From positions 21,414 through 85,413 of IMG/VR virus record IMGVR_UViG_3300004481_000333: DNA of 64,000 nt; one strand, written 5' to 3'. Position 1 is the first letter of the stretch. Each line of letters begins with the position of its first letter. Both the position numbers and the translations under genes were made by a program. Under the pieces are notes generated by a model, which did not search any database, had not been told where the DNA came from, and was given only the letters and a program-made list of their open reading frames with translations. This stretch comes from a virus. Shown piece after piece: positions 9,300 to 61,554 of the stretch.

Positions 9300-9704
9300 G
9301 TGGCGAAGCCCCAAGGTCCGGAGAAGGCGTCGTTCCGCCAGCTTTCCAAGCGAATGCCTACGTGGAAGCTTGAGAAGGCTCACGAAATGCGTCTGAATCA
9401 GACGCTTACGGAACGTATTCTGTGGCATCGGCTGAGAGCCCGAAAACTGGGAGTGAAGTTTCGGCGTCAAGTACCGTTGCTCGGTTACATCGCAGACTTC
9501 GCAAGTCTTAGGGAACGAATTGTTGTCGAGGTCGACGGCAAGACTCACGATGACCAAGTTGACTACGATGCCAACCGTGACGACGCAATGCGTCGATTCG
9601 GCATCAAGGTAGTACGGATCCCTTCGTGGTTGATCTTGTCGAATCCGGAAGGAGCCGTGCGGATCATCCAGAACGCCATCAAAGATCGGAGTCTGGACTC
9701 CTGA
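9300..9704 (+). CDS. DUF559 / Vsr-like endonuclease
   Basis: TERILW, KFRRQ, YIADF, VEVDGKTH, YDANRD. Confidence 0.85.
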   Translation: MAKPQGPEKASFRQLSKRMPTWKLEKAHEMRLNQTLTERILWHRLRARKLGVKFRRQVPLLGYIADFASLRERIVVEVDGKTHDDQVDYDANRDDAMRRFGIKVVRIPSWLILSNPEGAVRIIQNAIKDRSLDS

Positions 9705-10149
9705 CAGGTATCCAGACTCTGCTGGCCGGATCGGTCTGTCAACAGAAAAGCGACACAACCGAATTTTGACGCTTGGCTGTTTGGCCTACGGTACGCAGAG
9801 TCTGCGAGCCTCTTCCACCTCCCCAGCGGAACCACCTGAAAGCTCGCGATGGCGGCAACGACACTACCGGCTGGGAGTAGGGCTAACTCCGGCCAGCCAG
9901 ATCGGGTCCAGACTCCCCGCACCCGACTAGGGGACCGCGACCCACAATCTTGGGACGTCGTGCCTGACCAATACTGGGACAGGTTGCTCCGATTGATGGC
10001 GCTCCTGCCTCCGGCGCAGGAGGAAGACGGGCCGGATCCGGAGCCGTTCGTCTAGGGACGAATGTAGGCCGGCCGGAAGCACTAGATTCCGCGCATTTGT
10101 GCGCGAAACCCCGGGTGACGACCCGGGATCTACCAGAAAGGGATTCCCA

Positions 10150-10227
10150 ATGGTAGCTCGAAAGTTCTCTACCCGCGCTGGTGGCGGCAGGATCAAGTTC
10201 CGAGCCGGTCTCGGCGGAGCAGGCTGA
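10150..10227 (+). CDS. 25-aa basic peptide ending LGGAG
   Basis: AAGGGA RBS; MVARKFSTRAGGGRIKFRAGLGGAG*. Confidence 0.65.
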   Translation: MVARKFSTRAGGGRIKFRAGLGGAG

Positions 10228-10230
10228 GGC

Positions 10231-10356
10231 GTGGCCATCTCGGTGCCTGCCGTGACCGGGATGCTGGTGAGCCAGGGCGCGCGGAACATAGCGCGCCTTG
10301 GCAGAAGCCAGGCGGCCCGTGGGCGTTTTAGTGCTTGGCTTGGCGGGTCTGGCTGA
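10231..10356 (+). CDS. 41-aa basic peptide ending LGGSG
   Basis: GTG start; ...ARGRFSAWLGGSG*, same C-terminal motif as previous peptide. Confidence 0.6.
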   Translation: MAISVPAVTGMLVSQGARNIARLGRSQAARGRFSAWLGGSG

Positions 10357-10358
10357 GC

Positions 10359-11057
10359 GTGCGGGCTCTAGAGTCGACATTACACCAACTAGAGGAGGCA
10401 CGTCGCGGTAGTGCCGCGTGCCTTCTGGCCTTCAGTGGCGGCAAGGACTCGCTGTGCTGTGGGGAACTGGCGCATCGCGTGTTTGAACGCGTTGAGGGGT
10501 TCTTCATGTACCTCATTCCGGGCATGGAATGTGTGGAAGAGGCGCTGGAGGTTGGGCGCAAGCGATGGGGGATGCAGATTCGGCAGTATCCGCACTGGGT
10601 ATTGAGCAAGCTGTTGAACTCGGGCGTCTACCGGTTGACGCACGATCTCGACACCCGGTTGTTTGATAAGCAGTTTCCAGATCTAAAGCTGAAGGACATC
10701 TACGCGCTGGCTCGAGCAGATTCTGGGATTCAGCTTCTCATGACTGGGGCTAAGAAGGCGGACTCGATTTGGCGGCGCAAGATGCTAGGCAACTGGGGCA
10801 GTCAGGAAGACGTGCTGTATCCACTGATCGAGTGGAGCAAGGTGGACGTCTTGGCTTTCATGAAGGCCAACGATCTACCGGAGCCCAGTAGTTCGGAGAA
10901 GAACGCGACGGGAATCGATTTGACTCCTGCGTCGCTCTTGTGGCTACACGACCAGCATCCCCGGGACTTCGCGCGGCTCTGTGAGGTGTTCCCATTGGCG
11001 GAGGCGATAGTGTGGCATCGGAAGTTCTATGGCGGCGAAGAAGCATCGGCAGCCTGA
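10359..11057 (+). CDS. PAPS-reductase-like PP-loop protein
   Basis: AFSGGKDS, GAKKADSIWRR, YPLIEWSKVDV; no C-terminal ECGLH. Confidence 0.85.
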   Translation: MRALESTLHQLEEARRGSAACLLAFSGGKDSLCCGELAHRVFERVEGFFMYLIPGMECVEEALEVGRKRWGMQIRQYPHWVLSKLLNSGVYRLTHDLDTRLFDKQFPDLKLKDIYALARADSGIQLLMTGAKKADSIWRRKMLGNWGSQEDVLYPLIEWSKVDVLAFMKANDLPEPSSSEKNATGIDLTPASLLWLHDQHPRDFARLCEVFPLAEAIVWHRKFYGGEEASAA

Positions 11058-11796
11058 ACCGGCATCAGAACCGGTTGTGGAAGAGGCGGCCGTACTGCAT
11101 CCGCTTCAGCGTTTCGAGTTCGTGACGATTCATCGGCGCGACATCCAGAAGGCGCCGTACAATCCTTGTCGCATCACCGATAAGGCGCGCGAACAGCTGC
11201 GTATCAGTCTGGAGAAGAACGGGTTGGTGGAAGGGCTGGTGTGGAACGTGCGCACCGGAAACCTTGTGGGAGGACACCAGCGGCTGGAAGAGTTGGACGG
11301 GTATTTTGGGTCCGACAACTATCTACTGACGGTCTGCAAAAACGACGTGTCGGAAGCGAAGGAAGTAGAACTCAACGTCGCATTGAACAACGAGGCTACC
11401 CAGGGCGAATGGGTTCCTGAGTCACTGAAGGTTTTGCTGCAGCGCAAGGACGTAGACCACGCCGCCATGGGGTACGATACCGCGGATGTCTTCACGATGT
11501 TCGGAGGATCCGTCTTCAACGGACCACAGGCAGCTGAGCAACTGGAGAAGCTGGCTGATCGCTTGAAGGACACCCAGGCGGCCTATGACAAGATCGTCAA
11601 AAAAGACGCCGGCAAAAGCGAGAAGGACGACGACCAGTACTACATGGTGATCGTTTTCCGAAACACGCGCGACCGTTTGGACTTCAGCGAGCAACTCGGG
11701 CTCGAGGAAGGGCGTCTGTACGTGTCGGGGACGCAGATGCGAGGCCTGTTCAAGCTTGTGGCGAAGCAACCAAGCGAAGATGCGGCAGCGGAGTAG
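11029..11796 (+). CDS. ParB/Srx-like N-terminal domain protein
   Basis: PYNP, GLVEGLVWNVRTGNLVGGHQRL. Confidence 0.85.
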   Translation: MAAKKHRQPEPASEPVVEEAAVLHPLQRFEFVTIHRRDIQKAPYNPCRITDKAREQLRISLEKNGLVEGLVWNVRTGNLVGGHQRLEELDGYFGSDNYLLTVCKNDVSEAKEVELNVALNNEATQGEWVPESLKVLLQRKDVDHAAMGYDTADVFTMFGGSVFNGPQAAEQLEKLADRLKDTQAAYDKIVKKDAGKSEKDDDQYYMVIVFRNTRDRLDFSEQLGLEEGRLYVSGTQMRGLFKLVAKQPSEDAAAE

Positions 11797-11799
11797 TGG

Positions 11800-12420
11800 A
11801 TGCCTCCCAGTGACATGGACCCTCCGAAAAGGAACGGAGGACAGAAACCAAAGCTCAACAAGGCGTTGACCGAAAAACTGTGCAAGCTCGTGAGCAGCGG
11901 GATCCCCAAGACCACGGCGGCCGGTACGGTAGGGATTCATTCCATCACGCTCTACCAGTGGCAACAGAAGGGCCGCGCTCATCTCGAGAAGGGTGAGCAA
12001 TCCCGTTACAGCAACTTCGTGGAGCAGCTGTACCAGGCCGAAAGCATCGCACGCGCCACCATCTTCGCACAGTGGCAACAGTGCTCCCGATACAACAGGG
12101 GTTCCCCAACTGTCATCCAGATCGATGAAAAAGGAAAGCAGAAGGTCCTGGAAAAGGGCGTTCCAAGCGGACCAGAAGGCGACTGGCGTTCGTATCGAGA
12201 AATGCTGCGTTGCATGGACCCGGACAACTGGGCCGAACGGGTCAAGACCGAGCTCACGGGTAAGGATGGTGGACCTGTGCGGGTAGAGAAAACATCCCCC
12301 GCTGCCCTTGCGGCCGAGGCGCGCAAGCTCATTGCCGAGACGTTCCGATCTGGTGACTCGACTCAGCAGACGGAAAACACAGATTCGGAACCAGAAGATC
12401 CGGACGAAGGGGAAAAATGA
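11800..12420 (+). CDS. terS: terminase small subunit
   Basis: N-term HTH, ELTGKDGGPV motif, upstream of terL. Confidence 0.7.
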   Translation: MPPSDMDPPKRNGGQKPKLNKALTEKLCKLVSSGIPKTTAAGTVGIHSITLYQWQQKGRAHLEKGEQSRYSNFVEQLYQAESIARATIFAQWQQCSRYNRGSPTVIQIDEKGKQKVLEKGVPSGPEGDWRSYREMLRCMDPDNWAERVKTELTGKDGGPVRVEKTSPAALAAEARKLIAETFRSGDSTQQTENTDSEPEDPDEGEK

Positions 12421-12706: not shown

Positions 12707-13195
12707 ATGCCCGCGAACCTGATCGACACCCTGAACGAGATCCTGGCGGCCGAGCGGGTCGCGGAGGACCAGTACCGCCTGCAGAGCAAGCTGGCGGATA
12801 TTCAGGGGTACTCCAGGCTCGCGACCAAGTTCGCGGAAGAGCAACAGGAAGAGTCGGGGCACGCGGACCGCGTTGTGGCCCGGATCGACTTCTTGAGGGG
12901 ATCCCCAGTGCCGTTTGGTCCAACACCAACTGTGCCGCGTGAGCTCCCCAACCTAGAGCAGGTGGGCGCGACCCCAGAGGCCATGCTGGCTGCCAACAAG
13001 GCGGCGGAGCTGCGTGCCATCGCGCTCTACAACGGCGCAATCGAGCTCACGCTATCGCTGAAGGACCACGGAACCAGACTCGTCCTGGAGCCAAACCTGC
13101 GGGACGAGGAGCAACATCTCCTGTGGGTGGAACAGCAGCTATCGCTCATCCAGTCGTTGGGCGTCGAGAACTGGCGCCAAACGCTGGTGGTATAG
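12707..13195 (+). CDS. bfr: bacterioferritin-like protein
   Basis: LNEILAAE..A.DQY, EESGHAD, E..AIALYN, DEEQH..W.EQQL.LI..LGVEN. Confidence 0.85.
   Translation: MPANLIDTLNEILAAERVAEDQYRLQSKLADIQGYSRLATKFAEEQQEESGHADRVVARIDFLRGSPVPFGPTPTVPRELPNLEQVGATPEAMLAANKAAELRAIALYNGAIELTLSLKDHGTRLVLEPNLRDEEQHLLWVEQQLSLIQSLGVENWRQTLVV

Positions 13196-56216: not shown

Positions 56217-61554
<5,338 letters not shown>

Follow-up and report, generated by a model that had tools for sequence, protein, structure and literature searches.

Pairs of a PAPS-reductase-family enzyme and a ParB-like protein encoded ahead of the terminase genes are already annotated in cultured phages, where they have been named IbrA/IbrB-like without a mechanism. 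IbrA is a PAPS-reductase-like protein of ~400 amino acids (aa) with an extra C-terminal domain, and the PP-loop ATP pyrophosphatases are marked by an N-terminal SGGxDS-type motif on a Rossmann-like alpha/beta fold. According to the accessible parts of the reports on them, the QueC-family PP-loop enzymes Cap9 and QatC act on the disordered glycine-ended tail of a partner protein (10.1101/2025.04.06.647259; PMC13279940), with this tail modelled in or needed at the active site and an amide built through an adenylated carboxylate (10.1101/2025.04.06.647259; PMC13279940; PMC13376578). The stretch analysed here, called the window, comprises 64,000 nt of the IMG/VR virus record IMGVR_UViG_3300004481_000333, an 85.4-kb viral contig estimated to be 78% complete, and all coordinates refer to the window unless a related locus is named. 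It carries such an enzyme/ParB pair directly 3' of two short basic peptides with glycine-rich ends, and what appears to be new is the glycine-tailed peptide and its tie to the enzyme of the known phage PAPS-reductase/ParB pair. Full-text searches of the literature, supplementary files excluded, gave no description of a Gly-tailed peptide with this phage pair.

Glycine-tailed peptides and their association with the enzyme/ParB pair

Peptides 1 and 2 (Table 1) share one frame with TGA-GGC between them, and the stop of peptide 2 is followed by GC and then by the GTG of the enzyme gene, leaving a gap of 2 nt. Their C-terminal residues are RIKFRAGLGGAG and RGRFSAWLGGSG, respectively, and alternative starts are present for both, a GTG at 10099 upstream giving 42 aa for peptide 1 and an ATG at 10261 giving 31 aa for peptide 2. 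The coordinates bear out this anatomy, LGGAG and LGGSG ends included, as an earlier note made from the sequence had described it; that note had proposed a peptide-conjugation system or a RiPP-like pathway.

Relatives of the enzyme were gathered from species-representative genomes (14 loci), IMG/VR (80 loci) and metagenomes (38 loci), and a ParB-like gene was observed 3' of the enzyme gene in nearly all loci with a strong enzyme match. The upstream scan of PAPS-reductase/ParB pairs for Gly-ended open reading frames (ORFs), which the earlier note had suggested, was performed with a blind criterion, namely an ORF of at least 15 codons with its stop between -150 and +25 nt of the enzyme start, a G at its end and at least two G among the last five residues. 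Such an ORF is present in 26 of 45 non-redundant PP-loop+ParB loci and in 4 of 42 distant ParB-less PAPS-reductase loci, and the background share is 2.1%, counted over 23,048 ORFs of these loci with ~3 candidates in each. When a wider collection of 75 non-redundant loci was classified by a heuristic that takes the most basic, Gly-rich candidate and is therefore biased toward finding one, a Gly-rich-tailed basic peptide was observed in 49 loci (43 of 69 when the six peptide-fetched loci, L137-L142, are left aside), including 26 tails of the poly-Gly type, 18 of the hydrophobic-G-x-x-G type and five that are otherwise Gly-rich. The loci with such peptides span 31-69% GC, so the prospect raised in the earlier note that homologous loci lack them finds no support. 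The peptide stop lies no more than 20 nt from the enzyme start in 27 of the 49 loci, a spacing that suggests translational coupling, and 25-185 nt away in the other 22, so that overlap with a ribosome-binding site cannot create the tail.

The same association was observed when the search started from the peptide. A profile of the hydrophobic-G-x-x-G class covers 60 protein clusters in a 5.8-billion-protein collection, all of them 'hypothetical' or unnamed and none with a Pfam family, and a peptide-only search of IMG/VR returned nine loci (two on contigs also found via the enzyme), in every one of which the enzyme and a ParB-like gene lie 3' of the peptide. The tblastn match to the enzyme starts 3-7 nt past the peptide in eight of these nine viral loci; in L142 it starts 218 nt past the peptide, and a second Gly-ended ORF fills the gap. 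Among 12 ORFs located between enzyme and ParB genes, one encodes an HNH endonuclease and six encode further Gly-ended peptides. Judging by this recurrent gene order, the peptide, the enzyme and the ParB-like protein are a widespread three-part set that travels together, and the peptides are apparently real genes, functionally tied to the PP-loop enzyme.

No conserved fourth gene was found upstream: in the 38 loci whose upstream neighbour was considered, DUF488-N3a is the most frequent Pfam family with three occurrences, ASCH and Rha occur in two each and the remainder are single, and no recurring protease or transporter family was found there. A RiPP-like pathway is unlikely, as neither a leader/core layout nor a conserved fourth gene is present and the set always occurs with ParB and terminase.

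Within the window, the stop-to-stop ORFs of at least 20 codons in six frames number 1618, and the only two that end in GGxG are the adjacent peptides 1 and 2. Seven residues of their 12-residue tails are identical, five of these through different codons, a pattern expected of old paralogues held by protein-level selection, and peptide 2 appears to be a paralogue of peptide 1 in the tail. GC content by codon position does not single out the reading frame within the window, and is uninformative because Gly/Arg/Ala-rich peptides are GC-rich at all three positions. Since the window alone cannot prove coding, the coding case rests on the comparison with other loci. Over the whole length of its 22-residue body and tail, peptide 1 can be aligned with the last 22 residues of the L016, L034 and L038 peptides, and between L034 and L038 changes were observed at 20.5 of 29.7 synonymous sites and 6.5 of 81.3 non-synonymous sites, giving a ratio of non-synonymous to synonymous change per site (pN/pS) of 0.12. 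In a class of peptides of 54 aa, pN/pS is 0.11-0.12 in three close pairs and 0.33-0.42 in two distant pairs. By these ratios, the relatives of the peptides appear to be under purifying selection.

It is extremely improbable that the peptides are not genes at all and that the two frames are instead due to chance, to Shine-Dalgarno sequences or to leader peptides within an untranslated, GC-rich leader. Such a reading would fit the frame left unmarked by codon-position GC in the window and the antisense ORFs of 120 and 172 aa that overlap the region, but these two minus-strand ORFs, like a 68-aa plus-strand ORF there, have no Pfam family, and the adjacency of the only two GGxG ends, the pN/pS of 0.11-0.12 in four close homologous pairs and the stops too distant for a ribosome-binding-site by-product all stand against it. 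The Shine-Dalgarno artefact in particular was rejected on the 22 distant stops and on Gly runs of up to 8-11 residues with mixed codons, all four Gly codons being used by the peptides. A chance origin of the Gly-tailed ORF pair is excluded. Peptide 1 has no match in Pfam, PHROG, NCBIfam or PADLOC, the peptide profile has none among PDB sequences (E up to 10) or PHROGs, and the ESM Atlas gave no usable match.

The PP-loop enzyme and the ParB-like protein

An alignment of 44 enzyme homologues (A1) begins at GTG 10359, and therefore the TTG at 10335 proposed by the ORF finder is not the true start; likewise, the protein that represents this enzyme in a public collection, P0001 (183 aa, 79% of the query), begins past SGGKDS and is therefore a truncated gene call. 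SGGKDS is invariant in A1, the invariant positions of the family are the PP-loop S26-S31, G130, R139, D203 and P212, and no cysteine column is invariant or 90% conserved. The enzyme ends in ...WHRKFYGGEEASAA, and this C-terminus together with A1 confirms that SGGKDS is kept and that the CysH ECGLH cysteine is absent, as the earlier note had stated. PF01507 (PAPS_reduct) is matched at 22.7 bits against a cut-off of 22.5, the NCBIfam models of CysH, APS-reductase and CysD remain far under their cut-offs (18.6 vs 154; 16.6 vs 235), and phrog_424 ('PAPS reductase', classed as an auxiliary metabolic gene) is matched at 2.9e-13 over positions 154-324 of 460. The AlphaFold2 model has a mean pLDDT of 91, and its top Foldseek matches are TtuA, LarE, TilS and APS reductase at a TM of ~0.5, which is the level of a shared PP-loop core only; at least 216 PDB chains were matched at E<=0.001, and all among the matches listed are PP-loop enzymes. 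By motif and fold, the enzyme belongs to the PP-loop ATP pyrophosphatase superfamily.

The enzyme family is large, with 2797 representatives (clusters at 50% identity, nearly all of 215-245 aa) at E<=1e-3 in a profile search, 1202 at 1e-10 and 550 at 1e-30. No convincing peptide-enzyme fusion was found among the best 150 of the 2797 representatives; five N-terminally extended members of these 150 and three C-terminally extended ones were considered and are not peptide fusions. Fused forms of 483-2000 aa were not found either, which is weak evidence, and no recurring fusion of the enzyme to another domain was found, one relative (P0098) bearing an HNH domain. The enzyme matches no PADLOC model, and the 85-kb record, 78% complete, shows no TGT, QueC, cysteine desulfurase, amino-methyltransferase, ThiF or JAB gene and no match to the QueC family PF06508. 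Identification of the enzyme as CysH, DndC, TtuA or QueC was rejected on the lack of a conserved cysteine and of a PF06508 match, and it is predicted to be an activator of the ATP alpha-phosphate without the cysteine chemistry of CysH, DndC, TtuA and LarE.

These features bear on the notion of a sulfur relay, a miniature TtuA/TtuB-like or Dnd-like system in which the adenylated tail would be turned into a thiocarboxylate via a host persulfide and the sulfur passed on to DNA. The best Foldseek matches, TtuA (including its complex with the Gly-Gly-ended TtuB) and LarE, would be in keeping with it, as would the ParB-like and PP-loop pair DndB/DndC described in the accessible part of PMC10853773. 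It is nevertheless very improbable, because the absence of an invariant or 90% conserved Cys leaves neither an Fe-S site nor a persulfide Cys, the record has no cysteine desulfurase, ThiF or JAB match, no PADLOC model is matched (assuming the Dnd, Ssp and Qat content of that library) and the peptides are not beta-grasp proteins. As for DndC/SspD, no Aminotran_5 was found in the record, DndD and DndE not having been searched for.

The size of the enzyme similarly bears on an IbrA/IbrB-like regulator, in which the pair would switch on late (packaging/virion) transcription with the peptides as accessory factors. IbrA/B are called co-activators of prophage genes in the accessible part of PMC4490671, and the module does stand at the very start of the late/packaging operon, upstream of diverse terminase families. 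Yet the family is of ~225 aa and covers only the above part of phrog_424, the first genes of an operon would be an odd place for its own activator, and neither the invariant ATP-pyrophosphatase motif nor the Gly tails would be explained, which makes this reading improbable.

The ParB-like protein of the window alone has no Pfam match. It matches phrog_9353 (2.3e-42) and phrog_620 (ParB-like, 1.1e-17), and its N-domain corresponds to the N-terminal part of DNA methyltransferase models (phrog_498, 8.9e-18; PADLOC MTase_II, 1.1e-12). A profile of 39 family members (A7) matches H. pylori ParB 4umk (3.9e-4) and B. subtilis Spo0J 6sdk (3.7e-3) with both boxes aligned, and 7 of the 39 members match PF02195 (E<=0.01). 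N45, P46, G82, H83 and Q84 are invariant in A7, R47 and R85 are at least 90% conserved and the acidic/Asn positions E112, N120 and N121 are also kept, giving the motifs NP, GHQ and E...N. The PHROG ParB-like matches and the match of the family profile to ParB/Spo0J N-domains agree with the ParB assignment made earlier. As stated in the accessible part of 10.1101/2025.10.10.680097, ATP is the nucleotide bound by ParB-fold domains in methyltransferase fusions, and CTP is that bound by phage fusions to other domains. When the gene 3' of ParB was classified in 48 loci, TerS made up all six of the commonest PHROG families and TerL seven more. The module is thus portable, with the packaging machinery, and not one terminase lineage, as its constant neighbour.

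A proposed role for the glycine tail

Carboxylates are activated by the PP-loop enzymes NadE, QueC and LarE. By analogy, the explanation that we tentatively favour is that the enzyme adenylates the C-terminal carboxylate of the peptide, with the ParB-like protein guiding the product to DNA at the time of packaging. The observations at its core are the co-travelling of the three parts, peptides apparently selected to have a free C-terminus that is nearly always Gly, and an intact PP-loop motif. In the proposed mechanism, the disordered Gly tail would enter the PP-loop active site, its carboxylate would attack the ATP alpha-phosphate to form a peptidyl-adenylate, and the activated acyl group would be handed to a nucleophile. 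The ParB-like protein would bring the reaction to phage DNA or to the packaging complex, because its N-domain is the domain fused to phage DNA methyltransferases, and the most likely product would be a cationic peptide attached by an amide bond to DNA or to a DNA-bound protein. The enzyme and a ribosomal peptide would then replace the small-donor group-transfer enzyme of the ParB-methyltransferase fusions, with anti-restriction, charge neutralisation or packaging control as candidate pay-offs. The stronger proposition that the phage polycationic peptide is covalently joined via its C-terminal Gly to the phage's own DNA or to a DNA-bound packaging protein, by the PAPS-reductase-type PP-loop enzyme under the guidance of a ParB-like clamp, is unlikely, and a correspondingly small chance is given to its corollary, a peptide 'hypermodification' written at packaging, in which the peptide would stand in the place that S-adenosylmethionine has for ParB-fused methyltransferases.

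The peptides have net charges of +6 to +18 and a Lys/Ala repeat character, and they look disordered. The last residue of the 49 tailed peptides is G in 41, A in four and W, K, E or Q in one each. Among the 24 aligned members of the 54-aa class, 20 have their stop directly behind the same Gly; of the other four, one ends in ..DGL and three seem to be truncated or frameshifted. The model of this class has a pLDDT of 58 and two short helices with no strands. Tandem pairs of tailed peptides were observed in the window, L019 and L110, and where several peptides occur in one locus they appear to have only the tail in common. Both tandem peptides of L110 end in GGGGQ, the peptide of L031 ends in GAGQ, and L016 encodes two tail-like units within a single 82-aa ORF, whose last Gly is followed by an extra Trp; a single capping residue after a Gly run resembles ubiquitin precursors and Pup. 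A second basic Gly-ended small protein (62-94 aa), unrelated to the first, was observed between the enzyme and ParB genes of six Bacteroidota-type loci.

Several observations weigh against adenylation of the tail. The terminal residue is not strictly Gly, since 8 of the 49 peptides end in A, W, K, E or Q; among the 75 loci, the basic peptide lacks a Gly tail in 13 and no peptide at all is present in another 13; and in L016 and L019 tail-like Gly runs occur within longer ORFs, so that a free end is not needed at every copy. The upstream basic ORF of Riemerella phage RAP44, of 44 aa and unannotated, ends in NGAI, and Pasteurella phage Pm86 has no such peptide. Tail-class labels cluster on the enzyme tree, with 0 of 500 shuffles as low for either the poly-Gly or the hydrophobic-G-x-x-G class, and this is no evidence either way because kinship alone explains the clustering; the PP-loop motif, which reads SGGKDS in 24 of 24 poly-Gly-class enzymes and SxGKDS in 13 of the 17 that belong to the other class, is likewise uninformative. 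To our knowledge, the known reactions of the PAPS-reductase clade use sulfate, phosphate or an enzyme cysteine, and not a peptide carboxylate.

Some of these points would be accommodated by a non-covalent partner. Here the peptides would be histone-H1-like DNA-binding or charge-neutralising subunits or adaptors of the enzyme/ParB complex, with the Gly tail as a flexible docking or regulatory element. The target of activation by the PP-loop enzyme would then be a DNA base, a DNA end or a nucleotide, in the manner of TilS, ThiI or DndC. The high positive charge, Lys/Ala repeats and apparent disorder fit this possibility, as do the varying last residue, the basic peptides without a Gly tail, and DNA as the likely target, the ParB N-domain being common to DNA methyltransferases. 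It would leave unexplained why the frame stops right past the Gly run in diverse lineages (41 of 49 peptides, 20 of 24 in the 54-aa class), why fusions to the enzyme are absent and why several peptides per locus are alike in the tail only, and it is considered rather unlikely.

As for the earlier note, the part that stands is that the peptides appear real and tied to the PP-loop enzyme, and the chemistry put forward there, with activation of the C-terminal Gly and conjugation to virion proteins or DNA, would fit the anatomy; a RiPP pathway, as said, is unlikely. The analogy with ThiS, MoaD and ubiquitin fails on fold and enzyme type, as the window peptides are of 25-41 aa, no beta-grasp is present in the 54-aa class and no ThiF-type E1 was found in the record.

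Neighbouring genes and comparison with known systems

The coordinates of the features are collected in Table 1. After the ParB-like gene, the gene order by Pfam and PHROG matches is TerS, a ferritin-like gene, TerL and an SPP1-type portal, and the placement at the head of the late operon in the earlier note is therefore correct. The DUF559 and ferritin-like genes of the window do not recur in related loci, and the only DUF559 among the 38 upstream neighbours is that of the window. Two GC-rich hairpins were observed 20-60 nt 5' of peptide 1, and the 121-nt hairpin stretch upstream of it has a folding z of -3.0 vs shuffles; a sigma-70-like promoter was sought in 9300-10600 and none was found. 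Placed in front of the packaging operon, the hairpins may serve as a terminator/insulator or act as a late-control element. Elsewhere in the window, a 1229-aa collagen-like protein, probably a fibre, is built nearly entirely of G-T-T triplets; segments outside the repeat separate its blocks and also occur at the C-terminus. Its gene, in which the only long k-mer gaps of the window lie (ATG/CAT is absent for 1324 nt and CGC/GCG for 784 nt), explains these gaps and also an AT skew of 0.29-0.35; a depletion of the words GGG/CCC and GGA/TCC was not seen in the window.

Table 1. Positions of the features discussed, in the window or in the related locus named.
Feature	Sequence	Position	Strand	Remarks
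DUF559 endonuclease-like gene	window	9300-9704		directly 5' of the module; Pfam 4.9e-29
GC-rich hairpins	window	10091-10104, 10110-10127		
Gly-tailed basic peptide 1	window	10150..10227	+	25 aa from ATG 10150; TGA 10225-10227; net charge +6; LGGAG end
Gly-tailed basic peptide 2	window	10231..10356	+	41 aa from GTG 10231; TGA 10354-10356; LGGSG end
PP-loop ATP-pyrophosphatase-fold enzyme, PAPS-reductase family	window	10359..11057	+	232 aa; GTG start; SGGKDS
ParB/Srx-fold protein	window	11029..11796	+	255 aa; 29-nt overlap with enzyme gene; C-terminal domain uncharacterised
Small terminase subunit (TerS)	window	11800..12420	+	phrog_4102, 5e-16; directly 3' of ParB-like gene
Ferritin-like gene	window	12707-13195		between TerS and TerL; Pfam 3e-22
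Collagen-like protein	window	56253-59942		
ORF with two tail-like units	L016	3740-3988		
Gly-tailed peptide	L031	3533-3889		
Tandem tailed peptides	L110	57-290, 318-455		
Second Gly-ended protein	L043	4967-5248		
Second Gly-ended protein	L120	3320-3550		
Second Gly-ended protein	L138	2888-3118		
Second Gly-ended protein	L139	4056-4241		
Second Gly-ended protein	L141	3851-4081		
Second Gly-ended protein	L142	2929-3177		
Gly-ended protein of Lactobacillus phage LR1	L096	3666-4091		

The enzyme family is routinely mislabelled as a sulfur-assimilation 'auxiliary metabolic gene', and gene callers overlook its peptide partner, for which neither Pfam nor PHROGs has a family. If the tail is a substrate, the set would be a C-terminal counterpart of the PP-loop protein-tail conjugations of Cap9 and QatC, used by phages and not by their hosts, and could bring to light a new modification of DNA or virions that bears on packaging and on escape from restriction. 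Relatives in the cultured phages LR1, JNU_P7 and RAP44 make the question open to bench testing.

Ubiquitin-like carriers such as ThiS, MoaD and TtuB are beta-grasp proteins of at least 65 aa with a Gly-Gly end that are activated by a ThiF-type E1, and the Gly end is the sole feature that the window peptides have in common with them. TtuA, which binds the Gly-Gly C-terminus of its carrier TtuB (5gha, 5b4f), is the best structural match of the enzyme model, but the match is at a TM of ~0.5, the window enzyme lacks conserved Fe-S cysteines, the peptides do not have the beta-grasp fold and no E1-like activator was found in the record. DpdB-DpdA is a pair of a ParB-superfamily protein and a DNA-modifying enzyme, comparable with DndB-DndC. 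In the latter, a ParB-superfamily protein stands beside the DNA-modifying PP-loop ATP pyrophosphatase DndC, as described in the accessible part of PMC10853773; the DndC cysteine dyad is absent in the window enzyme, and the Dnd and Dpd systems have no peptide component. The pairing of a PAPS-reductase-like with a ParB-like protein is common to the window module and IbrA/IbrB of E. coli, whereas IbrA-type proteins are larger than the 232-aa window enzyme, which aligns to part of phrog_424 only.

The pairs of a 'PAPS reductase family protein' and a 'ParB-like nuclease' in phages such as RAP44 (gp33/gp32) and LR1 belong to the same families in the same order, directly before TerS/TerL, and the window enzyme shares 25-31% identity with its counterparts in these cultured phages. 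Unlike in the window module, no Gly-tailed peptide component is annotated in them; the upstream basic ORF of RAP44 is not Gly-ended, and LR1 has a 141-aa basic Gly-ended protein that sits after the enzyme gene and before ParB. As far as the accessible parts of the reports cited above go, Cap9-CdnD (type IV CBASS deazaguanylation) and QatC-QatB (QatABCD defence) combine a PP-loop enzyme with a glycine-tailed partner as the window module does, Cap9 being the nearest worked-out precedent and QatC a precedent by inference. The sole sequence link to Cap9 is a weak PP-loop match to 9nto (E 1.5e-5), and the peptides start with MV.. or MA.. and not with the Met-Gly of QueC-family partners. Cap9 and QatC use the N-terminal amine of the partner and the carboxylate of a 7-deazaguanine, whereas in the window module the tail is C-terminal and the peptide would supply the carboxylate. 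Cap9 and QatC are QueC-family enzymes of host defence, whereas the window module is a phage packaging-operon module that joins a PAPS-reductase-family enzyme with a ParB-like protein and a cationic peptide of 25-80 aa.

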